A stretch of DNA of 32,000 nucleotides from Deinococcus radiodurans R1 = ATCC 13939 = DSM 20539 (GTDB lineage: Bacteria > Deinococcota > Deinococci > Deinococcales > Deinococcaceae). Both the position numbers and the translations under genes were made by a program. The notes under the pieces are model-generated. The model saw only the letters and a program-made list of their open reading frames with translations, made no database searches and was not told the origin of the DNA. Location: positions 90,001 to 122,000 of the forward strand of contig NC_000958.1 of the NCBI RefSeq assembly GCF_000008565.1. Direction: 5' to 3'. Positions 7,375 through 31,860 of the stretch are shown one piece after another; positions within the stretch are counted from its first letter, which is position 1, and each line of letters begins with the position of its first letter.

Positions 7375-8562
7375 TCAGTACACCTCATCGGCGGGCGGCT
7401 GATGAGGCAGAGCGTCTATAAAGGGCGTTTGACCGGCCTGAATCTCCCTGGTCCAGCGCGTAACTCCCGCGAGGGCTTGCGGGTCTAGGCTCACCCCGAT
7501 GCCGGGGCCGGGGGGAACCGGCATTTCCCCACGCTCGACTTCAAGCGGCTCCTGAATGATGTCGCGCTCCCAGTAGCGGCTCGCCGAGCTCGTGTCGCCG
7601 GGCAGCGTGAAGTTTTCCAGGGTCGAGAGGTGGATGTTGTGGGCGCGTCCGATGCCGGTTTCCACCATTCCGCCGCACCACAGCGAGGCGTCGAACGCCA
7701 GCGTGAGGTCGTGAATCCGGCGGGCTTCGAGGTGCCCGCCCACCCGCGCCACCTTCAGGTTGATGACGCGCCCCGCCCCGATGCTGAGCGCCTGACGCGT
7801 GTCGCGGGCGCTGGTGATGCTCTCGTCGAGACACAGCGGAGTACGCAGGTTTTTTTGCAGGGCGGCGTGGTCGAGCAGGTCGTCGAAGGCGAGCGGCTGC
7901 TCGATGTACTTCAGGCCGTAGCCGTCCAGGCGTTGCAGGGCCGAGGCGTCGGCGAGGGTGTAAGCGCTGTTGGCATCGACGGTGAGCTGGGTGTCCGGCA
8001 GGGCCGCGCGCACGGCGGCCACCGGCTGTTCGTCCCAGCCCGGTTTGATTTTGAGTTTGATGCGCCGGTAGCCCTCGGCGGCGTGGCGCGCGGCGAGGTC
8101 GGCGGTCTGCTCGGCACCCGGCTGAATCCCGAGGCTGACCCCCACCGGAACCTTGTGCCGGACGCCGCCCAAGACTTGCCAGAGGGGGAGACGCAGCGCC
8201 TTGGCCCAGAGGTCCCAGAATGCCATCTCGACCATCGCCCGCGCCATGCGGTTGCCCCGGTAGGGCGCGAGTTCGAGGGCCAGCGCTTCAGGCGTGGCGA
8301 ACCGCTGCCCCAGCAGCCGGGGCAAGAGCTGACCTTCGACAAAGGCGACGGCGCCCGCCACAGTTTCTTCCCGGTAGAGCGGCAGAAAGTCCATCACCCC
8401 CTCGGCGTAGCCTTCCAGGCCCCCGGAACGCAGCGTCAGGAGCGGCACGTAGCGGCGGCGCATCACCCCGAAGCTCGTCTCGAAGTCGAACTTGAGCGGC
8501 ATCTCGAGCAGCCGCAGTTCAGCGCTTTCGAGGGTCAGGCCAGCGGGCGAAAAGGGCGTCAT
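7375..8562 (-). CDS. N-acyl/N-succinyl amino acid racemase / o-succinylbenzoate synthase family (enolase superfamily, MenC subgroup)
   Basis: 395 aa with [13 protein letters not shown] (KxK), [19 protein letters not shown] and [10 protein letters not shown] motifs. It closely resembles the characterised Deinococcus N-acylamino acid racemase but is not identical, so it is a paralogue. Confidence 0.9.
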
Positions 8563-8627
8563 GTGGACTCCTCTTTACCAGGCGGGGAGGGGAGAGGGGG
8601 CGGGGCTGTCCAAAATGTGGAGAACTG

Positions 8628-8703
8628 ATACGTGCTGCGTCCAATTCCCTAAAACCCGGAAAAACGCCGAATTTTAGTCCATTTCCCGCAGCACGTATTT
8701 TTT
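8628..8703 (+). promoter_or_regulatory. 12-bp perfect inverted repeat with a 47-nt loop followed by T6
   Basis: ATACGTGCTGCG (8628-8639) pairs with CGCAGCACGTAT (8687-8698) and runs directly into TTTTTT (8698-8703). It lies in the divergent racemase/SDR intergenic region, with no upstream + strand gene to terminate. Confidence 0.3.
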
Positions 8704-8726
8704 GCCACTCGCCCCGCTCGGGTTTC

Positions 8727-8745
8727 ATCGCTAAGTTTTAGCGAT
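8727..8745. promoter_or_regulatory. Perfect 8-bp-arm palindrome upstream of the SDR gene
   Basis: ATCGCTAA-GTT-TTAGCGAT, 38 nt upstream of ATG 8783. Confidence 0.3.
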
Positions 8746-8782
8746 TCAACCGCAATTCGTATGACCTGACGGCTCCCAAGGA

Positions 8783-9550
8783 ATGTTAGCGTGGCCCATG
8801 ACTCCACCGATTCTGGTGACGGGCGCCGCAAGCGGACTGGGGCTGGCGACGGCGCAGCTCCTGCGTGAGCGAGGCCACGACGTGATTCTCTCCGACCTGC
8901 GGCCCTCGCCGCTCGGCGAAACGCGGGTGGCCGACCTCACCGATGAGGCGGCGCGGCGTGACCTGATCGCGGGCCTGCCTCCACTGGGGGGTCTGGTCGC
9001 CTCGGCGGGCGTGGCCGGTCAGGCGCCGGGGCACCTCGTCATGGAGCTGAACTACGTAGCGACCCGTGACCTGGTGAGCTGTCTGCTTCCGAAGATAGCG
9101 CGGGGCAGCGCCGCCGTGGTGCTGTCGAGCACGTCCGCCCTTTTCGCGTCCCAGACGCAGGAGGAACGCCGCGTCATCCGCGACGATCCCGCCGCTGCGC
9201 GCCCCGGCTGGCAGGACCTCGAAGGCTGGGACGCCTACGGGCTGTCCAAGCGGCTGCTGCTCGACGAGCTGCCGGGGTGGGTGGCCGCCGGGCTGCCGCA
9301 CGGCGTGCGCGTCAATGCCCTGCTGCCGGGGCCAATTGAAACCCCCATGCTCGGCGATCTGGAGCAGATGCAGGGCGCGGAAGCCATGGATTACATGAAG
9401 GCGGTGGTGGGCCGCTACGGTCAGCCGCGCGAAATCGCCACCATTATTGCTTTTCTTCTTTCGCCCGACGCCTCGTGGCTCAATGGTGTGGAACTGCGGG
9501 TGGACGGGGGGCTCTTTACGCAGTTCGCCCTGGAGCAGCGCACCTCCTGA
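8783..9550 (+). CDS. Short-chain dehydrogenase/reductase (SDR)
   Basis: Contains the TGAASGLG Rossmann motif, the YGLSK catalytic YxxxK and a PGPIETPM segment. An alternative start is at 8798. Confidence 0.85.
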   Translation: MLAWPMTPPILVTGAASGLGLATAQLLRERGHDVILSDLRPSPLGETRVADLTDEAARRDLIAGLPPLGGLVASAGVAGQAPGHLVMELNYVATRDLVSCLLPKIARGSAAVVLSSTSALFASQTQEERRVIRDDPAAARPGWQDLEGWDAYGLSKRLLLDELPGWVAAGLPHGVRVNALLPGPIETPMLGDLEQMQGAEAMDYMKAVVGRYGQPREIATIIAFLLSPDASWLNGVELRVDGGLFTQFALEQRTS

Positions 9551-9584
9551 AGATCGTCGCCTGCCCATCCACAACAAAAGGCCA

Positions 9585-10214
9585 CTACAGCAGCCCCGCC
9601 CGCAGCGCCTTGACTGCCGCCTGGGTGCGGTCGGCGGCCTGCAACCTGTGCAGGATGTCCTGAATATGCAGTTTCACGGTGCTGACGCTGACGCCGAGCG
9701 CTTCGGCGATGTCCTTGTTGGGCAGCCCGTCGGCAATCAGGCGCAGGATGTCGAGTTCGCGGGGGGTCAGGGGCGAGTGGGCTTCAGGCATCCGCACGCC
9801 GCCGAGGACGTGGTGCGCCACCTGCGGATCGAGGTAGGCGCTGCCCGCCGCCGCCGCGCGAATCGCCAGCAGCAGCAGGTCCGGGCTGGCCGATTTGAGG
9901 CAGTAGGCGTCCGCGCCCGAGGCGAGCGAAGCGAAGACTTCCTCGCGCAGGTCGTGGGCGGTGAGCATCACGATGCGGACCCCCGGCCAGCGGCGCTTGA
10001 TTTCGCGCGCTGTGGCGATGCCGTCCATGCCCGGCAGGCCGATATCCACCACCGCCACGTCCACTGGCCGCCCAGTGAGGACTTCCAATGCCTCCTCCCC
10101 GCTGCGGGCCTCGGCCACCACGCGCAGGTCGGGTTCGAGGTTCAGCGTGGCGCGCAGCCCGTCGCGGGTAAAGGCGTGGTCCTCAACGAGCAGGATGCCC
10201 ACCGGGTCAGGCAT
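9585..10214 (-). CDS. Response regulator, NarL/FixJ (LuxR-type HTH) family
   Basis: Receiver domain (ILLVEDHAFTRDGL, VDVAVVDIGLPGMDG) plus LuxR HTH (TPRELDILRLIADGLPNKDIAEALGVSVSTVKLHIQDIL). The start overlaps the upstream kinase stop by 8 nt. Confidence 0.9.
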   Translation of the reverse strand: MPDPVGILLVEDHAFTRDGLRATLNLEPDLRVVAEARSGEEALEVLTGRPVDVAVVDIGLPGMDGIATAREIKRRWPGVRIVMLTAHDLREEVFASLASGADAYCLKSASPDLLLLAIRAAAAGSAYLDPQVAHHVLGGVRMPEAHSPLTPRELDILRLIADGLPNKDIAEALGVSVSTVKLHIQDILHRLQAADRTQAAVKALRAGLL

Positions 10215-11754
10215 GGGGCGCCTCGGGCAGGGTCAGCACGAACTGGCTCTGCGCCCGCGCCGTGCGGCGGTAACGCACCGTGCCGCCGTGCGCCTCGGCA
10301 ATCCGGCGGGTGAGGTACAGGCCCAGCCCGCTGCCGCTGCCCGCCCCCGCGCCCCGGAAGCGCTGAAAGAGCCGCGCCTGCTGCTCGGCGGGAATGCCGG
10401 GGCCGCTGTCTTGCACGATGAAGGTGACCTCGTCGCCGTCGCCGGTCAGAAAGAGCGTGACTTCCCCGCCCGGCGGGCTGAACTTGATGGCGTTGTCGAG
10501 CAGGTTCTGTACCGCGCGCCGCAGGTCGTGCTTGCGTCCCAGCACGGTCACGCCGCTGAGATTTGTTTCGACGGTGACGTTCCTGGCCTCGGCGCGGGGC
10601 CGCAGGTCGCCGGCCACGCTCAGGACCACGGCGCGCAGCGGCACCGGCTCGCGCTCCTCGTCCTCGCCGCTCTCGAACTTGGCGACGCTCAGGAGCTGGT
10701 CGGCGAGGTCGAGCAGCGTTTCGTTGGCCTGGAGCCCGTTTTCCAGCGTGGCGCGGTAGGCGGGCGGCAACTCGCCGTAAGCGCCTCTCAGGGCGGCTTT
10801 CATGTTCATGGCGTTCGCCAGCAGCGGCGTGCGCAGGTCATGCGAGAAAGCGTACACGAGGTCGCGCAGCAGTTCACCGCGCTCGGCGAGTTGCTGGCGG
10901 TTTTGCCGCAGGTCGTCGAGCAGCGCGGTGCGCTCCAGCAGCGGTTGCAGGGTGCGGACGGCGAGGCTGGTCACGCCCGGCGCGCTGTGCGGCGAGTTCA
11001 GGATGAGCAGCAAGTCGCCCTCGGTCGGGCGACGCAGGCGGGCGAGGTGGACGTTGCCGCCCTCGGTCGCCCACACGTCCCCGGCCCCCACCGGATGCGC
11101 CAGAAATTCCAGCGGAATGCGGGTGTTCAGGCGGCTGGGGCGCTCGGCGGCAGGCAGGTCGGGCGCGAGCACCAGCGCGTAGGGCTGCGTCAGCACCGCC
11201 TTGTCCACCGCGCCGATTTCCACGCTGCTCGCCCCGGTCAGGCGCTGCAAGGCCGCCGCCGCCCGCTCCACGAACTCGGCCTGCCCCAGTGGGCCACCCA
11301 GGTCCTCGGCGAGTTGCCGCCGGGCTTTTTCGCGGGCGAGTTGGTGCTCCTCTTCCTTGAGCGCCGCCGCCTGCTCGGAGGCTTCGCGGGCGCGGGTGGA
11401 GAGGTAGCCCACCAGCACCACCGCCAGAATGCTCACGGCGCGGTTGGCGAAGTGGTAGCCCCCCACGCCGTCGCGCGAGCCGTTCCAGAAGCCGGCGACC
11501 ACGTTCGCCAGCACCGCCAGCGCGGTGAGTTGCCAGACCGTCTTTTTCGACGTGCCGAGCGCCGCGAACGCGACCGACGCGCTGAGCACCGTGCCGAGCG
11601 CGAACGACGCGGGCGTCAGGAGGTCGAGCAGCACCACGACCACCAGCAGCGAGAGGGACACCCCCCACACCACCCCGTCGCTCAGGGGAAACTGCGGCGG
11701 CGGGAACAGCTCCCGCACGAATGCTCCTGTGCTTTCCGGCCAGCGCGTCCTCAT
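10207..11754 (-). CDS. Membrane sensor histidine kinase (N-terminal multi-TM module, GAF-like middle region, HisKA + HATPase)
   Basis: H-box FSHDLRTPL, N-box NLLDNAIKF, G-boxes DSGPGIP and GSGLGLYL. There are three to four N-terminal hydrophobic helices. I prefer ATG 11754 (MRTRWPE) over the ORF-track start at 11856. Confidence 0.85.
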   Translation of the reverse strand: MRTRWPESTGAFVRELFPPPQFPLSDGVVWGVSLSLLVVVVLLDLLTPASFALGTVLSASVAFAALGTSKKTVWQLTALAVLANVVAGFWNGSRDGVGGYHFANRAVSILAVVLVGYLSTRAREASEQAAALKEEEHQLAREKARRQLAEDLGGPLGQAEFVERAAAALQRLTGASSVEIGAVDKAVLTQPYALVLAPDLPAAERPSRLNTRIPLEFLAHPVGAGDVWATEGGNVHLARLRRPTEGDLLLILNSPHSAPGVTSLAVRTLQPLLERTALLDDLRQNRQQLAERGELLRDLVYAFSHDLRTPLLANAMNMKAALRGAYGELPPAYRATLENGLQANETLLDLADQLLSVAKFESGEDEEREPVPLRAVVLSVAGDLRPRAEARNVTVETNLSGVTVLGRKHDLRRAVQNLLDNAIKFSPPGGEVTLFLTGDGDEVTFIVQDSGPGIPAEQQARLFQRFRGAGAGSGSGLGLYLTRRIAEAHGGTVRYRRTARAQSQFVLTLPEAPHA

Positions 11755-11789
11755 GGGCCCCAGCGTAGCCCGCCTGTCCCCGGCGCACG

Positions 11790-11807
11790 ATTGGCCAGGT
11801 GGCCAAT
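11790..11807. promoter_or_regulatory. Perfect 18-bp palindrome in the kinase / kdpB divergent promoter region
   Basis: ATTGGCCA-GG-TGGCCAAT, followed by a partial third half-site (CTGGCCGAT, 11820-11828). It lies between the kinase start (11754) and the kdpB start (11886). Confidence 0.4.
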
Positions 11808-11885
11808 GCCCTGAGCCAGCTGGCCGATACCTCACTCCGCGCCGCAGGACGACCATAACGGCGCTATGAGTCTTTCTTCTTTCCG

Positions 11886-13922
<2,037 letters not shown>

Positions 13923-18333: not shown

Positions 18334-19884
18334 ATGTTGTCCCGCCGTGTTCTGCTGACCATGGGCCTGACTCTGGCCTCTGCCTTCCCGACTGGGCTCG
18401 CTCAGAGGCCCCAGCCACAGACGGCTCAGGCGCAGGCGGACCTCGAAGCGATAAGCACCGCCTACACGATGTACCTCAGCGCCACGTTCATCCGGGACAG
18501 CTGCGTGAAACGCGACCCGGCCAGCGCCGTCAGGGTCAACCAAAGCTACGCGGCGTGGCTTGCGGCCCAAAACCTCGGCACGTTCGAGGCGCAGCTCGGT
18601 AAAAAGTTCGGGACTGATCAGGTCAAAGCGCTGCGCCAGGAGATAAGCGGCCAGCTGGCGGTCTTGGATACCGCGCTGCAAAAGCTGGGGCCGGCCAGTC
18701 AGGCCTGCCCGGCCTTGGCAACCCAGTTTTCATCCGATACCTTCGATGTGCGAAAGAAGGTGCCCAACCTCGCGGCGCTGCTCACTGTAGGTAGAGGGCC
18801 AAGCGGAACAACGGCGGCCAGTGGAAGTGGTAGCAGCGCCGGGGCCAGCGTCACCGTTTACAGCGTGGCGCAACTCTCTTCGCTCATGGCCCAAACGGTC
18901 GCGCCGCTGCGGAGCGCCGGAACCCGTGCTCAGGAGGCTGCCGGCCTGAAAAAATTGCAAACGCTGGGCAAGGTGATCGTGGTGAGCGGCACGACCAAGC
19001 GCAGGCGCTCCATCACGCAGGCCGACGACCGCCGCGAAGTCAGGTACGACGTGTATTGCTACGACATGCACAACGACGCCGCCGATCCGCCCCAGGGGCA
19101 AGTCACGGTGGCTGGGCGGATTCGTGAGTTCGACGCCAGCCTGGGTGTCGTGCTGGAAGACTGCGTGGTTTTGAGCGCCGGCCAGAGCGCCCAGTTCAAA
19201 AAATCTACCCTGGCCGTCGTGGACGCGGCGTGGCAGTTCAAGTCCCAGCCCTACGAGAAGTTTCTGGTGCCTGCCGGCCAGGGCCTGAAAGACAGCGAGA
19301 TTCTGGGCGCGTACATGGAGCAATCCAGCGCCGTTGGCGTCGGGGGGATGACGATCACCACCTATCCTGTCTCGCTGTTTCTGAAAGACGGCACCGTGTT
19401 CAATGATCCTTATTGGGCGCCCACGTCGTTCAACTTCAAGCTCTCGCGGCAGCTTGAGCCGCAGAAATGGGGCAAGTGGACCCGCCAGGGCAACAATTTC
19501 ACGATCAAATGGAGCGACGGCAGAACTGACACCTTCATCGTCAAGGGCGCGCCCAAGGCCCTACCCGCCGGCACGCGGTTGTCGGGGACATTCGAGACCA
19601 TCTCCGGCGGCGGCACCACCTCGCTAGGCGGCGACACCATTGTGGTGAGCAGCGGCACGTATACCTTCCGGCCAGACGGCACGTTCACGGGCGGCAGCTT
19701 CGGCGGCGGTGGTGACTCGTCAGTCACTGTCGGCAGCAGCAGGGCAAGCGGCGGCACCTACAGTGTCAGTGGCTACGGCATCACCCTCAGGGGCTCGGCC
19801 AGTCAGGAACGCCGGCTGTTCTTTGCCCGCTACAACGACGACATGCTGTACATTGGCAGCTCGACTTACACCCGCGACCGCTGA
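18334..19884 (+). CDS. Secreted hypothetical protein
   Basis: 516 aa. Signal peptide MLSRRVLLTMGLTLASAFPTGLAQ, a helical N-domain, a Gly/Ser linker (GPSGTTAASGSGSSAGAS), and a beta-rich C-terminal region with repeated G-T-Y/F motifs (SGTYTFRPDGTFTGG, GGTYSVSGYGITL). I recognise no family. Confidence 0.7.
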   Translation: MLSRRVLLTMGLTLASAFPTGLAQRPQPQTAQAQADLEAISTAYTMYLSATFIRDSCVKRDPASAVRVNQSYAAWLAAQNLGTFEAQLGKKFGTDQVKALRQEISGQLAVLDTALQKLGPASQACPALATQFSSDTFDVRKKVPNLAALLTVGRGPSGTTAASGSGSSAGASVTVYSVAQLSSLMAQTVAPLRSAGTRAQEAAGLKKLQTLGKVIVVSGTTKRRRSITQADDRREVRYDVYCYDMHNDAADPPQGQVTVAGRIREFDASLGVVLEDCVVLSAGQSAQFKKSTLAVVDAAWQFKSQPYEKFLVPAGQGLKDSEILGAYMEQSSAVGVGGMTITTYPVSLFLKDGTVFNDPYWAPTSFNFKLSRQLEPQKWGKWTRQGNNFTIKWSDGRTDTFIVKGAPKALPAGTRLSGTFETISGGGTTSLGGDTIVVSSGTYTFRPDGTFTGGSFGGGGDSSVTVGSSRASGGTYSVSGYGITLRGSASQERRLFFARYNDDMLYIGSSTYTRDR

Positions 19885-24491: not shown

Positions 24492-25520
24492 ATGGCCGAA
24501 CGGCAAGTCATCAAAGAACGCGCCCAGCTTTTTCCCCACCCCAATGCCGAGAGACTCGAACTCTGCAAGGTCGGAACCTTTCAACTGGTCGTCCGCAAAG
24601 GCGAATACCGGGACGGCGACCCCATCGTCATCGCCCCCGAGAAGGCCGTCTTGCCCCCGCAGCTGGCCGGGCTCTACACGAACGCGGACACCGGCGCGAG
24701 CTACCTGCACGGCGCCGAGAAAAACCGCGTGGGCTCGGTGCGCCTGCGTGGCGAGGTGTCGCAGGGCGTGATTCTGCCGCTTGACGGGCTCGAAGACGCC
24801 CCGTTCGGGGAAGACCTCGCCGAGCGCCTCGGCATCACCTTCTGGGAACCGCCCGTCCCGGTCAGCATGGCGGGCGAAGTCGAGCCGCGGCCCCCGGCGC
24901 AGCACTACAAGCACCACGATGTCGAGCAGTTCGGCATCTACGTCAGCGAATTTGCCAGCGGTGAAGAGGTGATGGTTACCGAGAAGCTTCACGGCACCCA
25001 GGGCGTCTACTTCCGCACGGCGGAGGGCCGCTGGCTGGTCACGTCCAAGGGCCTCTCGCGCGGCGGCCTGACCCTGCGGGAAGCGGCGAGCAACGTCTAC
25101 TGGCAAGCGGCCCGCAACAGCAACCTCTTTGCTGAAGCCGACGCGGCGTTTTCCGGCGGCGAAGTGCAGATTTTCGGTGAAGTCGTTCCCGTTCAGAAGG
25201 GCTTTTCTTACGGTCAGCACAAACCCACGGTCTTCGTGTTCAAGGTGGTTTATGACGGCCTGCGCTTGCCCCGCCGCGACTGGCCGCAGTGGGTTCTCGA
25301 CCACGCGGTCCCGGTGCTGTACGAAGGGCCGTTCGACGAGGCCACTGTCCGCAAGTTGCGCGGCGGCCTGGAGACCGTTTCCGGGAAGGGGCTGCACATC
25401 CGCGAAGGCGTCGTGGTCGCGCCTAAAGTCCCGCGCTTTGCCGCCGACGGCAGCGATCTGAGCGTCAAGCTCATCTCCGACGCCTACGCCAAAAAGGAAA
25501 CGGGCGAGGAGTACTCGTGA
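24492..25520 (+). CDS. ATP-dependent RNA ligase, Rnl5 type (DraRnl)
   Basis: 342 aa. N-terminal OB-like module plus a nucleotidyltransferase domain with motif I EKLHG, whose lysine falls at residue 165 by my count. That is the published adenylylation site of the D. radiodurans RNA ligase (DR_B0094). Confidence 0.95.
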   Translation: MAERQVIKERAQLFPHPNAERLELCKVGTFQLVVRKGEYRDGDPIVIAPEKAVLPPQLAGLYTNADTGASYLHGAEKNRVGSVRLRGEVSQGVILPLDGLEDAPFGEDLAERLGITFWEPPVPVSMAGEVEPRPPAQHYKHHDVEQFGIYVSEFASGEEVMVTEKLHGTQGVYFRTAEGRWLVTSKGLSRGGLTLREAASNVYWQAARNSNLFAEADAAFSGGEVQIFGEVVPVQKGFSYGQHKPTVFVFKVVYDGLRLPRRDWPQWVLDHAVPVLYEGPFDEATVRKLRGGLETVSGKGLHIREGVVVAPKVPRFAADGSDLSVKLISDAYAKKETGEEYS

Positions 25521-26235
25521 CCCTGCTCAACGTGGTGGACGTGGAAGCGACCTGCTGGGAAGGGGAGCCCCCGGCGGGTCAGCACAGCGAAATCATCGAA
25601 ATCGGCATCGTGGTGCTGAATCTGGAAACGCTGGAACGAACGGGCAAGCGCAGCGTGATGGTCAGGCCGGAACACTCCGAGGTCAGCGCGTTCTGCACCC
25701 GGCTGACCGGCATCACGCCGGAGGAAGCCGCTTCTGGCGTCAGCTTTGGAGCAGTTCTGCGAATTACGCGTGCGTCGGAACAGCACCGCCACCCGCTCCA
25801 TTCTCTGCTTCGCAGCTTTGCAAGTTCGTTCTGCTCCCTGTTTTGTCCTCGCTCTCTGCGAGCTGTACCAGTCCGCTCGCCAAAAAGCTGTGCCATCTTT
25901 TTGTCAAATGCTCTAGGGAAGCGTGCGACCTGCTGCGGGCCGAGTACCACACTGATTCCCGGCCCTGGGCGAGTTGGGGCGACTATGACCGCAGGCAAAT
26001 TCAGCGGCAGGCGGTCGGCGGCGTTCGCTTTCCCTTCAGTGCGCGCCACACCAATGCCAAACGCGCTTACGCCGAGGCGTATTCCCTCAGGAAAGCGGGG
26101 ATGGCGCAGGCCCTCGCCCACGCCGGGCTGCCACTCGAAGGAGCGCACCACCGCGGCGCCGACGACGCCTGGAACATCGCGGCTCTGGTCGCCCAGCTGG
26201 TGAGTGAGGGGCACTGGCCGCAGGACCCCACGTAG
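25517..26235 (+). pseudogene. DEDDh 3'-5' exonuclease (ERI-1/KapD-like), disrupted by a non-coding-looking segment of about 155 bp
   Basis: Exo I VVDVEATCWE and EIIEIGIVV lie in the frame starting at GTG 25517. Exo II WASWGDYD and Exo III HHRGADDAWN lie in the frame of ORF 25843-26235. The two homologous parts are in different frames and are separated by 25763-25917. Confidence 0.75.
25763..25917. other. Putative insertion splitting the exonuclease gene (boundaries approximate)
   Basis: Removing exactly these 155 nt joins ...GVSFGAVLR to EACDLLRAEYHTDSRPWASWGDYD... in frame, giving a 187-aa exonuclease of normal size. The segment has lower GC, no exonuclease-like frame, and contains the hairpin CAAAAAG-n9-CTTTTTG (25881-25903). 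Confidence 0.4.
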
Positions 26236-26274: not shown

Positions 26275-26613
26275 TCAGTTCAATCCAGGCGCCGTCTGAA
26301 CGACGTGACCATTCACCACGTCCAGGGTGTAGACCGGCTCGCTCAGCAGGTCTTCGGCCAGCGAGAGCTGAAACGTGTCGGGCGAAGTCGGAACTCCGGC
26401 AGCTCCGTCGGTCAGGGTAATCCACAGGCCCGATTCGTCCGCCGCGCACAGCAGCGTGCGCCCATCTTCAGTCCCGAACTCCTGAAAGGTGAGTGGGGCG
26501 ATCAGGGTGTGCCAACTCATCAGCCCGCAGAGGCCAGCCAGACTGTCGAGGTCGTCGCCGTCGAGTTCGTAGGCCCGGTACGTGATGCGGTGGGCGAGTT
26601 CGCTGAGGTCCAT
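26275..26613 (-). CDS. Hypothetical small acidic protein
   Basis: 112-aa ORF (MDLSELAHRITYRAYELDGDDLDSLAGL...) with native-like codon composition and no recognisable motif. Confidence 0.45.
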   Translation of the reverse strand: MDLSELAHRITYRAYELDGDDLDSLAGLCGLMSWHTLIAPLTFQEFGTEDGRTLLCAADESGLWITLTDGAAGVPTSPDTFQLSLAEDLLSEPVYTLDVVNGHVVQTAPGLN

Positions 26614-27654: not shown

Positions 27655-28896
27655 TTAGCCGCTCAGCTCCCCCTCCAAAGTGTCCCAGGTCAGCCGGTGC
27701 GCCTCGCCCACTTCCGGGAATTCCAGCAGCCGGAGCTGGTCGGCGAGGACTGCGCTGTTCACCTGCCGCTCTCTCCCGCTGATGCGTGCTCCGAGCTGAC
27801 CGGGCGGCGTCCACAGCACGTGCAGCTCGGTCAGAGCGCCGTAGTCGTAGCCCAGCCCCAGCACCTGGGCGCGCTGGCTGCGGCGCAGGGTGGTCGCGTC
27901 CCAGACGGCGTGGCGCCCCCGGCGCAGGGCCTCGCGCAGTTGCTCGCGGGCGGCTTGCAATACCTGACCGTTCACCCGCTGGTCACTCGCGTTTTTGCCG
28001 AGCTTGGCCCGCAGCGCGTCCAGACTGATGAGGTCGGCGTCCGGGACGCTGTGGGCATACGTGCTTTTGCCGCTGCCCGAGGGACCGCACAGCACCGTTA
28101 GGCGCGGAAACCCGCTGCGGGCGGCCTCCTGCACTCGGGCCACCGCCTCGTGCGGCGTGTGAATCACCCCGGCCTCCCAATCCTGAATTCCCCGGCCCAC
28201 CGCCAGCGCGAGCAACTCGGGCGGCGCGCCGGGCAGCAGGGCCGCAATCTCCGCGCGAAAGGCGGCGTAGGGGTCCGTGACGTTCCAGACGCCGAGGTCA
28301 CGGGCAAGCAGTTCCAGATAGTCGGCGGTGTCCTCTCCCTTCCTGCCGTCGCCGCCGCGCACTTCGCGGCCCCGCGCGTCGGCTTTCGCCAGCCGCACGA
28401 GCAGGGGCAACGGCACCTGCCGCGCCAGGGCGAAGACGCCGCGCCCCAGTTCACTTTCGGCGGCGCGGTGCAGGCTGTGATGATGCGCCACCAGTTCCAG
28501 CACGGTCAAAATCAGCCTGGGAGCAAGGCCGGTGTCGAGCAGGCGGTACGCGAGATAGTCCCGCCCCCGCCGCGCGTGCTGGCGCGACCGCAAGCGTATT
28601 TGCCCGCTGCTCCCCTCGGGCTCCTCGCGGGTGGTCAGCGCCTTGCCGATGTCGTGCAGGGCGGCGGCCAGCAGCAGGGCCGCGCGGTCAAAGGGGTCGA
28701 GGCCTTCCGAGAGTTCGTGCGCCCGCGCCAGTACGAGCGCCGAGTGGGTCGCCACGTCGCCCTCGGCGTGCCACTCGGGGTCCTGCGGGGTGTGCGGCAA
28801 CTCGCCCAGCAGCGGCAACACCGGGCGCAGTTCGGCGCTCAGCTCGTCGAAAGTGACGGGCTCAGGCCGCGTCAGGAGGTAGATGAGGGCAGACAT
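27655..28896 (-). CDS. HD-domain phosphohydrolase fused to P-loop polynucleotide-kinase-like domain (PNKP-like end-healing enzyme)
   Basis: 413 aa. N-terminal HD motifs (HAEGDVATHS, LHDIGK, VAHHHSL); C-terminal Walker A LCGPSGSGKST and a kinase-like fold. GGAG SD. The start overlaps the PARG stop by 25 nt. It matches what I recall as DR_B0098. Confidence 0.9.
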   Translation of the reverse strand: MSALIYLLTRPEPVTFDELSAELRPVLPLLGELPHTPQDPEWHAEGDVATHSALVLARAHELSEGLDPFDRAALLLAAALHDIGKALTTREEPEGSSGQIRLRSRQHARRGRDYLAYRLLDTGLAPRLILTVLELVAHHHSLHRAAESELGRGVFALARQVPLPLLVRLAKADARGREVRGGDGRKGEDTADYLELLARDLGVWNVTDPYAAFRAEIAALLPGAPPELLALAVGRGIQDWEAGVIHTPHEAVARVQEAARSGFPRLTVLCGPSGSGKSTYAHSVPDADLISLDALRAKLGKNASDQRVNGQVLQAAREQLREALRRGRHAVWDATTLRRSQRAQVLGLGYDYGALTELHVLWTPPGQLGARISGRERQVNSAVLADQLRLLEFPEVGEAHRLTWDTLEGELSG

Positions 28897-29729
28897 AAGG
28901 ACTCCAGCTCGCGACGAAACGCGCCGAGCGTCGGGTGCTGAGGATGATTGTCGAGGACGGCGAAAGTAACGTGCTCAAAAGCGCCCTGGGCTTCCCCTTC
29001 CAGCAGCTCGCGGAAGGTGCGTGCCACGCCCGCCGGGTCGTTGCGGAACACGCCGCAGCCCCACGCTCCCAGCACCAGATGCGTCTGCTCCATCCAGGCG
29101 GCGACGCCCAGAACCCGCCGGGCCCGTTCCCGCAGTGTCGGCAGCACCTGCGGCAGTTGCTCAGGACGGCTCTGGGCCACTGCTCCAGCGTTCGGGGCCG
29201 GCGCGGTGATAATGTTCACCGGCACCGGCGCGGGCAACAGTTGCCCCGCGTCATCCCGGAAAATGGGGACCTGCGGGCTGTAAATGAGGTGGTCGGTATA
29301 GAGCGCCGAGTGGGACTGGCGGTTGACCGCGTAGTAAGGCTCGGCCTGGGGTGAGGTCAGACTGAAATAGAGCCCACTGCCACGGCACAGGTCTTCTTCC
29401 TGGGCCTGCGCGCCGCCCAGAAAACCGCCACCGGGGTTTTTGGCCGAGGCGAAGTTGAGCGCTGCGAGTGCTGACGCCTTTTCACGCAGGCGACGCGCCG
29501 CCGCAAACGTCGTCTCAGACGTGACCTCACAGGTCGTCTGAAAGCTGCCCCGGCGACGGCGTAAGGCTTCTCGTAGGTCTTCTCCCTGCTCCGGCGTGAA
29601 CAGCCGCGTGCCTTGCCGCATTGCCGCGAGACCCGGCAACCTCACCGGACCCGACCCGGTGACGGACTGGCCCGTGCGGAGGATGTTCAGCGTGTCCTGG
29701 GCCTGTTCGGTACGGTTTTTGCGGTTCAT
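28872..29729 (-). CDS. Bacterial-type poly(ADP-ribose) glycohydrolase (macrodomain, DUF2263/TIGR02452-like)
   Basis: Start MNRKNRTEQ at 29729 overlaps the ligase stop as ATGA. The PARG signature GGG-X7-QEE is present (ALNFASAKNPGGGFLGGAQAQEEDLCRGSGLY). The longer ORF-track form (to 29981) overlaps ligB and is rejected. Confidence 0.9.
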   Translation of the reverse strand: MNRKNRTEQAQDTLNILRTGQSVTGSGPVRLPGLAAMRQGTRLFTPEQGEDLREALRRRRGSFQTTCEVTSETTFAAARRLREKASALAALNFASAKNPGGGFLGGAQAQEEDLCRGSGLYFSLTSPQAEPYYAVNRQSHSALYTDHLIYSPQVPIFRDDAGQLLPAPVPVNIITAPAPNAGAVAQSRPEQLPQVLPTLRERARRVLGVAAWMEQTHLVLGAWGCGVFRNDPAGVARTFRELLEGEAQGAFEHVTFAVLDNHPQHPTLGAFRRELESLCLPSSTS

Positions 29730-30358
29730 GACTGCTCCTGGCGCTTCAGACCGTTCGGCTCCACCGGCTGACTCAGCCAGTGCTGATCGGTCTGCACGTG
29801 CCCGCGCCGCACCCACTTGGCGACCTTGCGCCCGAAGTCGGCGTAGGGAATGGCGGCGGTCACGCGCACCACGTAGCCTTCCATCCGTTCCGGGTCGGGG
29901 TCCAGGGCCTGAAGGGCGGCCTCGTCCCAGGGGCCGCGGTACAGCTCGCGCGGGGTGGGCAAAGAGAGCCGCTCGGCCCATCCGCGCACCTCGTCCCAGG
30001 GCCGCGAGACGTTAAGGTCGTCCCAGACGCTGAAGAGGTAAAAATAGCCGTCCAGATCGTCGTATTTCAAACTATGGACGGCGTAGACGTTCTCGCCGCA
30101 AAATCGCCAGCCGAGCGGGATGTCGTGGGCGACGCGGCCCCGCTCGGCCTTGACCCAGGTCCGTGAGGGGTGCGGGCGCATGTCGAGGCTGCGGGCGTGC
30201 AGGTCATCACGGTAGAGGCTGGTGTTTTCGCCGTCGAGCTTCTCGGTCACGACGACCTCCTTGCCGATAAATCCGCTCAGCGACGTGATGCGGCGGTCAT
30301 CGTTCTGGAGGCCCGGCGACCAGGGCAGGTGGGGGATGGAAGGGTATTTGACTCGCAT
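29726..30358 (-). CDS. ligB: Minimal ATP-dependent nucleic-acid ligase (nucleotidyltransferase domain only), LigB/DdrP
   Basis: 210 aa with motif I EKLDGEN, a motif III-like FCGENVYA, YFYLFSVWD and a motif V-like EGYVVRV...KWVR. No OB domain is present. First gene of the three-gene operon. Confidence 0.9.
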   Translation of the reverse strand: MRVKYPSIPHLPWSPGLQNDDRRITSLSGFIGKEVVVTEKLDGENTSLYRDDLHARSLDMRPHPSRTWVKAERGRVAHDIPLGWRFCGENVYAVHSLKYDDLDGYFYLFSVWDDLNVSRPWDEVRGWAERLSLPTPRELYRGPWDEAALQALDPDPERMEGYVVRVTAAIPYADFGRKVAKWVRRGHVQTDQHWLSQPVEPNGLKRQEQS

Positions 30359-30409
30359 ACAGGATCACTGCTGCGTAGAGTAGAGAAAACCTGAGGGTGA
30401 CGGCATCGG

Positions 30410-30443
30410 CCTGACGGTCAGGTGGGGTAAGCGCTGTGGCTTA
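30410..30443. promoter_or_regulatory. Two adjacent palindromes upstream of ligB (candidate operators)
   Basis: CCTGAC-G-GTCAGG (30410-30422) and TAAGC-GCTGTG-GCTTA (30428-30443), 52-85 nt upstream of the ligB ATG (30358). Confidence 0.3.
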
Positions 30444-30479
30444 GCTGTCCGGTCGCCGACTTGTGCGGTCCCCACGAAA

Positions 30480-30522
30480 GAAAAGCGAGCGGCAAGGACA
30501 CGTCCCCATCCACCCGCTTTTC
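30480..30522 (-). terminator. Possible terminator of the amine oxidase remnant
   Basis: On the minus strand, GAAAAGCG...CGCTTTTC (8-bp stem, long structured loop) is followed by TTTCG. It lies 29 nt downstream of the stop at 30551. Confidence 0.3.
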
Positions 30523-30550
30523 TAAGCTGTATCGGTTCTTCTTAGCCTGA

Positions 30551-31860
30551 CTAGCCTTCGTTGGGCGGCGTCTCAATCGGCAGAACGTCATCACCAACCT
30601 GCGTGGTGCCCGAGCAGCAACTGCCGCCTGACGCCGGCGCCCCGTCCTGCACGCTGTGGGCGTTGCGGTCACGCGGCAGGTTCATGGCCGGGTTCTGGCT
30701 GAAAAAGCCGTTGGGCTTGAGCATGAATCCGGCGTATTCCACCGGCATGATCGGGAAGTCTTCGGGCTTGCAGACGTGGGTGTGGCCGAAGGTGTGCCAG
30801 ACGATGAGATCTTCGTTCTGGATGTTGCGGTTTTGCTGCACGTACTTGGGCAGGCCGTCCCCGCCGGCATGCTGGTTGGGGTAGTCGCCCGAGGCGTACT
30901 TCTCGTTTTCATGGCACGGCGTCACCCAGATGTGCTTGGTGGCGAAGCCGCCGCGGTGCCGGACGGTCGAGCCTTCGCGCGCGAGCATCAGCGGGCTGGG
31001 GTTGATGATCAGTTTGTAGCCCGTGGGATTGCCCACCGAGTTCTTGACGTTGGGATTGATGATTTTCCAGTAGCGCCCGGTCTTGCCGTCCGCCTCGCGG
31101 CAGGCGTCGAGTTCGCGGGTCAGGGTGCGGCTAGTCGTATGAAAGACGTTGCCGTAGGGGTTGGTGTCGCTCCAGGGCGCCGGCTGAAACTCGTGTTCAG
31201 TGACCGAGTTCTGAACGCCGTCGACCATCATATCGAGCCGGGCATTGAAAAAATGCTGGTGGGTCGGGCCGCCCAGCCCCTCGTCGACCATGCCGCCGTA
31301 GGGGTAAGGCTGACCCGGTTCGATGGCCGCGGTCTGGATGATGCCGGTCAGCTTGGCTTCCAGCTGAATCGTGCCGTCCTGGTAGAGGTACCAGTAAAAG
31401 CCGTAATCGTAATTGCCCAATAGTCTGTGCAGTTTTGGAGTTCAGCTACCCAAGCTGCGATAAACACGGCGTTTTTTGCCCCTCCCCCTTGCGGGGGAGG
31501 TTGGGAGAGGGGAGCGCAGGCAGCGTCCTAAACAGCAAAATCTTGATCGCCTTCTCTAACGACCACAAAACTGCACGAACCATTGAATTGCCGACGGTGG
31601 CGAAAAACGAGATGACCAGCCGGCGCGAGCGGCGCATCTCGTGCATGCCGACCCGGAACTCGTTGTGCTTCCAGAGGGTGCCGTAGTCCTCCTCGTGCAT
31701 GCACACGGCGTTTTTCATGATGAACGGCTGCCCGAAATCGTCAGCGGCAGGAATGTCGAAGTAGCGAATCAGGCCCAGGCAATCGCAGCCGAGTTCCAGT
31801 TGATTGGCGACTTTGCCCAGGCCGTATTCGCCCGCGTCGAAGGCACTTTTCCAGCTCAGT
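30551..31860 (-). pseudogene. Copper (topaquinone) amine oxidase, C-terminal catalytic domain only; interrupted by a MITE and 5'-truncated
   Basis: The upstream part reads SWKSAFDAGEYGLG...CMHEEDYGTLWKH...RRLVISFFATVGN (31860-31586). The downstream part reads (G)NYDYGFYWYLYQDGTIQLE...HQHFF...WHTFGHTH (31417-30551). It is collinear with Arthrobacter-type amine oxidase. The frame closes at the stop at 31873-31875, and none of the three frames upstream encodes the expected VPYGDP region. Confidence 0.9.
31418..31585. mobile_element. 168-bp MITE-like element with 20-bp terminal inverted repeats and 7-bp target-site duplication
   Basis: TIRs are CAATAGTCTGTGCAGTTTTG (31418-31437) and the reverse complement of 31566-31585, CAATGGTTCGTGCAGTTTTG (17/20 identical). 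The flanking direct repeat AATTGCC sits at 31411-31417 and 31586-31592. There is no ORF. An internal hairpin CCTCCCCC-TTGC-GGGGGAGG lies at 31481-31500. Confidence 0.8.

Follow-up and report, generated by a model that had tools for sequence, protein, structure and literature searches.

The ligB(ddrP)-parg-hd-pnk operon of Deinococcus radiodurans R1 codes for a minimal ligase (LIG), a bacterial-type PARG, and a fusion of an HD phosphoesterase with a polynucleotide kinase (HD-Pnk). It is a classic unsolved item of Deinococcus research: it is strongly induced by radiation and has contained a ligase without an agreed substrate since 2007. The locus analysed here lies in a stretch of 32,000 nucleotides (nt) of the pMP1 megaplasmid (contig NC_000958.1, positions 90,001 to 122,000), which is called the window. 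The closest described system is the operon DR_B0100/0099/0098 itself, and no difference from it was found. The 3.2-kb region is 100% identical at the DNA level to pMP1 of D. radiodurans R1, for which RefSeq lists exactly these three coding sequences. The locus is the radiation-induced operon, its open reading frames (ORFs) are real, annotated and experimentally studied genes, and chance ORFs are ruled out. An original prediction, made from the DNA letters, had arrived at the same assignment, and the coordinates, overlaps and motifs that it gave for the three minus-strand genes were all recovered in the sequence. The elements of the operon are listed below; lengths are in amino acids (aa).

29726-30358, minus strand: LIG (ddrP, ligB, DR_B0100), 210 aa, nucleotidyltransferase of the ATP-dependent polynucleotide ligase type without accessory domain
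29726-29729, minus strand: overlap ATGA of the LIG stop and the PARG start, read from the sequence
28872-29729, minus strand: bacterial-type PARG (DR_B0099), 285 aa, macrodomain glycohydrolase with its ATG at 29729
28872-28896, minus strand: 25 nt shared by the 3' end of PARG and the start of HD-Pnk, read from the sequence
27655-28896, minus strand: HD-Pnk (DR_B0098), 413 aa, N-terminal HD phosphoesterase and C-terminal P-loop 5'-OH polynucleotide kinase

ADP-ribosylation has been raised in connection with this operon already (Blasius 2007). More recently, a figure of the three-gene operon cast DRB0099 in the role of an aprataxin-like enzyme that repairs ends blocked by ADP-ribose (Fig. 6 in Lu et al., NAR 2025). 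The feature is already known and its central hypothesis is already published. The original prediction had called the integrated mechanism of the triad still undescribed. This is no longer correct, as the hypothesis of ADP-ribose-blocked ends is in print together with an operon figure; what is missing is the biochemical reconstitution. The remaining value lies in the substrate of the ligase, in a possibly polar parg knockout, and in a neighbourhood of ligase and PARP genes in jumbo phages.

The conserved unit is a ligase and a polynucleotide kinase

Of more than 590 genomic loci, the 80 with the greatest similarity to the D. radiodurans ligase were taken for a census. LIG belongs to a large and well-conserved family with 3265 homologues at E <=1e-5; the best 120 have lengths of about 210 aa and identities of 54% or more. 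The census loci belong to Deinococcota, Verrucomicrobiota, Actinomycetota, Planctomycetota, Myxococcota, Gammaproteobacteria, Chlamydiota and Bacillota, and thus cover at least seven phyla. A polynucleotide kinase domain directly follows LIG on the 3' side in 77 of the 80 loci. In 52 of them, from Actinomycetota and one other metagenome-assembled genome (MAG), ligase and kinase form a single ORF of 525-695 aa. The other 25 loci contain a separate HD-Pnk gene, mostly with an overlap of 1-8 nt or a gap of at most 6 nt. HD-Pnk is the immediate downstream neighbour of LIG in all 25 non-fused loci with a kinase, with PARG interposed in D. radiodurans and its near relatives. What is conserved is a heal-and-seal module of two components, namely a minimal adenylyltransferase of the RNA ligase type and a 5'-OH polynucleotide kinase. 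The kinase carries either an HD 2',3'-phosphoesterase or a degenerate HD domain that is backed by an adjacent 2H/EEP/MJ1316 protein.

The degenerate form is found in the actinobacterial fusions. Only the C-terminal half of the HD region is left in them, and the HD dyad has become HG or HQ. The gene after the fusion codes, in 40 loci, for a protein of about 960 aa with four parts: an MJ1316 domain for the recognition of cyclic ends, an EEP nuclease/phosphatase, a 2H phosphoesterase and a PAP-type nucleotidyltransferase. Examples are the loci L007 (fusion at 7920-9635) and L017 (fusion at 8001-9899, next protein at 9881-12769). Outside Deinococcus, the two-gene cassette stands in unrelated surroundings: no Pfam family occurs more than three times among 117 neighbours in non-actinobacterial loci, and the families common to at least two of these neighbours include no Tpt1, macro or ADP-ribosyltransferase (ART) domain. 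In an Enhygromyxa MAG, a second paralogue of the RNA_ligase family directly follows LIG and HD-Pnk (L061, 9991-10722).

The distribution of PARG is narrow. It occurs in two of the 80 LIG loci, namely in D. lacus and D. yunweiensis, and a Deinococcus MAG with a 79% identical ligase has overlapping LIG and HD-Pnk genes and no PARG. A search with PARG gave 7833 homologues, and the triad was seen in D. arcticus, Deinococcus sp. HMF7620 and one MAG (L081-L083). Seven PARG homologues were sampled outside the linked Deinococcus loci, and none of them has a ligase or kinase neighbour. They stand alone, have toxin-antitoxin genes as neighbours, or belong to an NrtR-NADAR-ARH-PARG-PnuC cluster for the salvage of NAD/ADP-ribose. 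In the ligase tree, all PARG-bearing loci belong to one clade, which has one member without PARG. The 4-nt overlap of LIG and PARG is also present in L081, L082 and L083, and hence in four genomes including D. radiodurans. The junction of PARG and HD-Pnk varies: it is an overlap of 1-4 nt in L082 and L083 and is interrupted in D. lacus (L001) and L081. In D. lacus, a DUF1152 gene on the opposite strand lies between PARG and HD-Pnk, and PARG is apparently shortened at its N-terminus; in the MAG L081, two small ORFs occupy this place. These observations agree with a published survey, in which D. soli, D. gobiensis and D. actinosclerus have operons of two genes and the genes of D. maricopensis are not linked (de Groot 2019). 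D. geothermalis lacks the operon (Makarova 2007).

The original prediction had started from the premise that PARG is always co-translated with the enzymes for healing and sealing. This premise is not supported, given the two PARG genes in 80 LIG loci and the separation of PARG from HD-Pnk in D. lacus and one MAG. A genome search for the triad had also been proposed. It was carried out and found the three genes linked in one Deinococcus subclade only; a triad confined to close relatives is the first outcome that the prediction had named as speaking against itself. PARG thus appears to be a recent, lineage-specific insertion between an ancestrally coupled or fused ligase and kinase, and is probably accessory rather than core. 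Its narrow distribution weakens the notion of de-ADP-ribosylation as a built-in part of the pathway, and a late, lineage-restricted insertion also tempers the idea that it is intrinsic to the ligase-kinase machine. Attention is redirected to the pair of ligase and kinase, present in many phyla and often as one fused protein, as the machine to be understood.

The same distribution bears on a second option of the original prediction, according to which LIG or HD-Pnk is switched off by ADP-ribosylation and on again by PARG. The majority of LIG/Pnk modules do their work with no PARG at all, LIG produced in E. coli is inactive with no ADP-ribosylation system present, and no writer is known. A switch has no direct support and would fit the inactivity of recombinant LIG only if the protein made in E. 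coli were modified, which is unlikely. It is therefore regarded as extremely improbable.

Domains and activities of the three proteins

The 210 residues of LIG are 100% identical to RefSeq entry WP_010884034. Motif I (EKLDGEN) is contained in VVVTEKLDGENTSLY, and its lysine K40 is invariant in 16 homologues. Equally invariant in these homologues are G88-E89-N90, F106/F109, E160-G-x-V-x-R165 and K181-x-V-R184, which correspond to motifs III, IIIa, IV and V. The only Pfam match is RNA_ligase (PF09414) at residues 33-183 with an E-value of 5.6e-33 and 114.9 bits (cutoff 27); no second domain was detected by Pfam outside these residues, and LIG thus has by this search no OB or other nucleic-acid-binding appendage of the kind that DNA ligases and Rnl1-5 carry. 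The original prediction of a nucleotidyltransferase domain alone is in line with this result. The AF2 model has a pLDDT of 90.5 and consists of a single compact domain with short conserved tails. Its closest folds are RNA ligases, namely Rnl5, archaeal Rnl3, T4 Rnl2, REL1 and Trl1, each with a Foldseek probability of 1.0, and DNA ligases rank lower. A search of the PDB sequences gave only chance matches to the PRD1 capsid protein (E 0.15); LIG therefore has no close solved structure. On the basis of the motif I lysine, motifs III-V and the nucleotidyltransferase fold, LIG is classified as an ATP-dependent polynucleotide ligase. Many phage versions of the ligase (L171, 5551-6630; L102, L117, L119, L122, L142 and L166) have an additional N-terminal region of about 150 aa compared to the 210-aa cellular form. 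This region might supply the nucleic-acid-binding module that LIG lacks.

In PARG, the signature GGG-X7-QEE is found in NPGGGFLGGAQAQEE, and the catalytic stretch GGGFLGGAQAQEE is present. The protein matches PF10021 (E 2.3e-44, 151.7 bits, cutoff 23.5) and TIGR02452 (E 2e-79, 266.8 bits, cutoff 50). With scores above these curated family cutoffs and a signature of the form GGG-X6-8-QEE, DR_B0099 is assigned to the bacterial-type PARG enzymes. Its structural characterization, to which the original prediction had referred, is confirmed by the match to the crystallized D. radiodurans PARG (PDB 5ZDA, E 1.5e-170) and by the published structures of this enzyme, here called DrPARG, which has exo- and endo-glycohydrolase activity on poly(ADP-ribose) (PAR; Cho 2019).

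HD-Pnk contains an HD domain (PF01966, residues 48-173, E 3.9e-13) with the motifs LHDIGK (H81-D82) and HHHSL, and an AAA_33 domain (PF13671, residues 266-394, E 8e-28) with the P-loop GPSGSGKST. The kinase domain resembles Clostridium Pnkp (PDB 4GP7, E 4e-8). The combination of N-terminal HD phosphoesterase motifs and a C-terminal P-loop kinase places DR_B0098 among the HD-Pnk proteins. Experimentally, DRB0098 is a 5'-kinase that phosphorylates 5'-OH ends of DNA; its phosphatase activity was not resolved in that study (Blasius 2007). In the primer table of the same paper, "DRB0098F" and "DRB0098R" match the start and the end of the PARG ORF (DR_B0099, 28872-29729) and not DR_B0098, while the R371 mutagenic primers do match HD-Pnk. 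The names in the table are probably a labelling slip.

According to Lu et al. (2025), DrPARG removes the ADP-ribose (ADPr) that the toxin RhsP2 attaches to the 2'-O of RNA, and protects E. coli from RhsP2, while the PARG of S. coelicolor cleaves ADPr off RNA and DNA ends that carry it on a 5'- or 3'-phosphate. The ligase T4 Rnl1 refuses to join 5'-ADPr-RNA in the presence of ATP and mis-joins it in the absence of ATP, leaving an abasic site. A cleaning of ADPr prior to sealing would therefore matter. Base-linked modifications are a different case. DrPARG is inactive on uracil-ADPr (2026 paper), and guanosine-ADPr on RNA is reversed solely by NADAR enzymes. ADP-ribosylation of bases by DarT/DarG-type chemistry, which the original prediction had offered as one possible substrate, is thus unlikely. 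Its proposal of an ADP-ribose-blocked strand end fared better: the idea is published and DrPARG does act on 2'-O-ADPr RNA. The accompanying view of PARG as an integral part of the pathway is weakened.

Genomic context and explanations of the operon

In the Deinococcus subclade with the triad, the operon belongs to a larger island of genes for the repair of RNA ends, and the gene order is RlaP - LIG - PARG - HD-Pnk - RlaP - RNase T-like exonuclease (L081-L083), and the RNase_T gene that follows the ligase cluster is intact. RlaP adds one or two nucleotides to damaged 3' ends of RNA. In D. yunweiensis (L002), Rnl5 is located directly 3' of HD-Pnk. The window contains a related pair of genes, which is convergent with the operon; the frameshift in the second one has been noted before (de Groot 2019).

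24492-25520, plus strand: DraRnl (DR_B0094), nick-sealing RNA ligase of the Rnl5 type with PF09414 and the OB domain PHA02142, annotated in RefSeq as "RNA ligase (ATP)"
25517-26235, plus strand: RNase T-like exonuclease (DR_B0095), frameshifted, with PF00929 on the first part only

This context points to the repair of ends, presumably mainly of RNA. In D. lacus, two tandem paralogous ORFs (L001, 6108-7062) lie just upstream of RlaP-LIG-PARG, and the one that was scanned is a NUDIX hydrolase. They might dispose of the free ADP-ribose that is released by PARG.

The explanation that is preferred here, with a confidence that is evenly balanced, combines a core ligase-kinase module for healing and sealing with PARG as an accessory cleaner upstream of both steps. 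PARG would strip ADP-ribose from a damaged strand, where it is attached to the ribose 2'-OH or to a terminal phosphate; this strand is most likely RNA or contains RNA. If not removed, ADP-ribose would block the kinase, the phosphoesterase or the ligase, or would cause abasic mis-ligation. HD-Pnk would convert 2',3'-cyclic phosphate or 3'-phosphate ends and 5'-OH ends to 3'-OH and 5'-phosphate. LIG, which would need a partner or a special substrate, would then seal the break. The ADP-ribose might originate from foreign ART toxins or from an endogenous writer. What has been shown in this explanation are the identities of the domains, the linkage statistics and the enzyme activities in the literature; the sequence of the steps, RNA as the principal substrate and the origin of the ADP-ribose are inferred.

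Several points weigh against it. DRB0100 adenylates itself at K40, and the exchange K40A abolishes the AMP adduct; it joins neither DNA nor RNA, alone or in the presence of DRB0098 and DRB0099 (Blasius 2007), and the original prediction had likewise called the ligase alone weakly active or inactive. The only joining reported is that of DNA, with DRB0098 and PprA (Kota 2010, as summarized in de Groot 2019), and a reconstitution with all three proteins is not in print. Removal of ADPr from phosphate ends was demonstrated for the Streptomyces enzyme rather than for DrPARG (Lu et al. 2025). The species that accumulates in the parg mutant is PAR detected by antibody (Cho 2019), and ADP-ribosylated RNA or DNA is not reported in D. 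radiodurans. A DRB0100 knockout was fully resistant to ionising radiation (Makarova 2007). Moreover, DNA and not RNA is suggested by the inducibility with radiation and by the phenotypes concerning UV and genome reassembly, the neighbours of related ligases in jumbo phages (a pyrimidine-dimer glycosylase and a WGR-PARP) have the flavour of DNA repair, and the census was limited to the loci most similar to one ligase.

DrPARG could instead degrade poly- or mono-ADP-ribose on proteins after DNA damage. Its place in the operon would then reflect co-induction without any hand-off to HD-Pnk and LIG. Endogenous PAR is detected in D. radiodurans, rises after UV and accumulates in the parg mutant (Cho 2019). 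The exo- and endo-glycohydrolase activity and the occurrence of PARG elsewhere, alone, among toxin-antitoxin genes or in NADAR/ARH/NrtR/PnuC salvage clusters, are likewise in favour of a role on proteins. Against it stands the activity of DrPARG on ADP-ribosylated RNA. Furthermore, according to the literature D. radiodurans encodes no PARP and no modified protein has been identified. PARG is also inserted exactly between translationally coupled genes and its 4-nt overlap with LIG is kept in four genomes, which suggests co-function rather than mere co-regulation. A purely protein-directed PARG is considered rather unlikely.

The phenotype of the parg mutant itself, an impaired recovery from UV with delayed genome reassembly (Cho 2019), deserves attention. 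The primers of Cho 2019 were mapped onto the window: a PgroEL-kan cassette replaces positions 29120-29458 within parg and is oriented against the operon. The start of hd-pnk lies within the 3' end of parg, and an hd-pnk mutant is as sensitive to ionising radiation as a deletion of the whole operon (Schmier & Shuman 2018, as cited in de Groot 2019). A polar knockout is therefore possible, and the UV phenotype ascribed to PARG could partly reflect an effect on hd-pnk. The available part of the text of Cho 2019 reports neither a complementation nor a check of DR_B0098 expression. Being possibly polar, this sole in vivo phenotype ascribed to PARG needs re-testing.

A writer of ADP-ribose was searched for in the window and beyond. 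No ART, PARP, DarT or Tpt1 domain was found in the 27 window ORFs scanned, in agreement with the original prediction, nor in L081-L083. Two window ORFs, one of 516 aa (18334-19884, plus strand) and one of 112 aa (26275-26613, minus strand), had no match in Pfam or NCBIfam, and the former had none in PADLOC either. Both show a gene-like codon GC pattern. Three ORFs in L081 had no NCBIfam match. A writer may be hidden among such ORFs without a family match. The search for a linked writer, as proposed in the original prediction, was thus negative for the Deinococcus loci; it was positive only in contigs of jumbo phages, where WGR-PARPs stand beside relatives of LIG.

Relatives of LIG occur in 438 viral contigs and, among cultured phages, in jumbo phages only. 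The viral ligases have neither HD-Pnk nor PARG beside them; some are paired with T4-type Pnkp, HD_4, Rnl1-type ligases or NAD kinase. T4-type Pnkp adjoins the ligase in seven of 80 viral loci. In six of these 80 loci, a WGR-PARP with an intact H-Y-E motif is located 0.3-3.8 kb from the ligase on the same strand. These PARPs are of two types, which are 23% identical to each other. A check from the PARP side found five intact ligases and one remnant just upstream of seven type-1 PARP loci. The type-1 PARPs are 42-100% identical, and the compared loci L098, L109 and L121 share no DNA similarity. A gene for a pyrimidine-dimer DNA glycosylase directly flanks the ligase in L098, L100 and L140. The viral contigs concerned are L098 (5001-8294), L100, L109, L121, L135, L140 and L172-L178. 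In the phages XacN1 and CcrSC the ligase is not adjacent to a PARP gene; the association is therefore limited to certain lineages. The adjacency is a new lead and not a proof: phages pack their genes densely and keep the gene order within families. It offers a concrete pair of writer and ligase for biochemistry.

The phage neighbourhood is one of the arguments for DNA as the substrate. In that case, the triad would be the bacterial counterpart of PARP1-PARG-PNKP-LIG3 and would act on DNA nicks or gaps after radiation: a writer marks the break, PARG erases the mark and HD-Pnk heals the ends before LIG, helped for example by PprA, seals them. The strong induction by ionising radiation, the delayed genome reassembly in the parg mutant, the phosphorylation of DNA 5'-OH ends by HD-Pnk, and the DNA ligation with DRB0098 and PprA are consistent with this sequence of events. 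The literature on strand joining by LIG is in conflict, as the reports of inactivity stand against the ligation of DNA in Kota 2010, which was not observed in two other laboratories. Likewise, a DRB0100 knockout was sensitive to radiation in one study (Kota 2010, as summarized in de Groot 2019) and resistant in the other mentioned above. Furthermore, the fold of LIG is nearer to RNA ligases than to DNA ligases, and the cellular neighbourhoods are of the RNA-repair type (RlaP, Rnl5, RNase T, MJ1316 cyclic-end domain, 2H). The Deinococcus loci encode no writer, and the parg knockout may be polar on hd-pnk. This reading of the triad as DNA break repair is judged unlikely.

A broader proposal, which is viewed as improbable, ties the family of minimal ligases in general to the chemistry of ADP-ribose at strand ends. 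It is based on the eraser PARG beside the ligase in the Deinococcus subclade, on Tpt1, which transfers ADP-ribosyl groups from NAD+, in Runella, and on the writer WGR-PARP in several divergent lineages of jumbo phages. The substrate of the ligase, which is inert on ordinary nicks, would be a 5'-phosphate end marked with ADP-ribose. This end might be a pre-activated donor that mimics the adenylated intermediate, or might be licensed for ligation only after removal of the mark. If true, this would amount to a prokaryotic and phage PARP-PARG-PNK-ligase repair of breaks, parallel to eukaryotic single-strand-break repair.

Tpt1 is also the starting point of a very improbable explanation, in which LIG makes a Trl1-like junction with a 2'-phosphate, KptA/Tpt1 removes this phosphate using NAD+, and PARG handles ADP-ribose by-products or intermediates of the Tpt1-type reaction. 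The Runella genes for LIG and HD-Pnk share a cluster with those for Tpt1 and a methyltransferase-HIT protein, and the ligase of this organism also fails on ordinary 3'-OH/5'-phosphate ends. The actinobacterial LIG-Pnk fusions pair with a 2H phosphoesterase and thus complete the domain set of Trl1, and the processing of Tpt1 products by macro and 2H domains is an established idea. However, no Tpt1 gene is present among the scanned ORFs of the window, Tpt1 is absent from the families common to at least two of the 117 LIG neighbours, and the HD domain of Runella has been characterized as a 2',3'-phosphoesterase. It reportedly leaves 2'-OH/3'-OH ends and hence no 2'-phosphate. In addition, no ADP-ribose-1''-phosphate phosphatase activity is known for PARG-type macrodomains, which also counts against this explanation.

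The region upstream of LIG contains two further elements.

30359-30479, minus strand: putative promoter and leader of the operon, deduced from its position
30480-30523, minus strand: hairpin followed by a U-rich run, -28.7 kcal/mol, z-score -3.96, none of 200 shuffled sequences as stable

A promoter scan of the intergenic region gave no sigma-70-like match in 30359-30479. A terminator scan made no call, though folding revealed the strong hairpin. The latter is likely the terminator of an upstream copper amine oxidase pseudogene and would insulate the operon. This gene (30551-31718, minus strand) is split by a frameshift into one ORF that covers profile positions 155-407 and another that covers 114-157. 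[quoted passage not shown] Genes for IS4-family transposases (ISDra1, ISDra7) lie about 1.5 kb past LIG in the pMP1 record, starting near the end of the window.

Comparison with known systems

The DarT/DarG pairs and other pairs of an ART toxin and a macrodomain protein resemble the locus in that a macrodomain reverses the ADP-ribosylation of nucleic acids, and DrPARG likewise counters RhsP2 in E. coli. In contrast to them, the Deinococcus locus has no adjacent cognate toxin gene, its macrodomain is of the PARG type and not of the DarG/TARG1 type, and DrPARG is inactive on base-linked uracil-ADPr. LIG and PARG had no match among the PADLOC models, and the HD domain showed only weak similarity to Cas3-HD; the triad is no catalogued defence system.

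Aprataxin (APTX) also removes a nucleotide-type adduct from a 5'-phosphate prior to ligation, and the analogy is explicit in Lu et al. 2025. Compared to aprataxin and to the PARP1-PARG-PNKP-LIG3 pathway, the Deinococcus hydrolase is a PARG macrodomain and not a HIT enzyme, and no PARP, XRCC1-like scaffold or writer is known.

The logic of the ligase-kinase pair is that of T4 Pnkp with Rnl1/Rnl2 and of bacterial Pnkp/Hen1: healing of the ends by kinase and phosphoesterase is combined with sealing by an ATP-dependent ligase. In Deinococcus, however, the phosphoesterase is an HD domain instead of a HAD or calcineurin-type enzyme, the ligase is devoid of a nucleic-acid-binding appendage, there is no Hen1 methyltransferase, and an ADP-ribose hydrolase has been added. 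The actinobacterial fusion and its neighbouring protein follow the same logic of ligase, kinase and 2H domains as the fungal tRNA ligase (Trl1).

The cluster of Runella slithyformis (Munir & Shuman) has the same minimal ligase and an overlapping HD-Pnk gene, and this pair recurs in 25 of the 80 census loci. The Runella ligase adenylates itself and seals no standard ends. The two clusters differ in their additional genes. Upstream of the pair, Runella carries Tpt1 and a methyltransferase-HIT protein, and it lacks PARG; D. radiodurans has a PARG between LIG and HD-Pnk.

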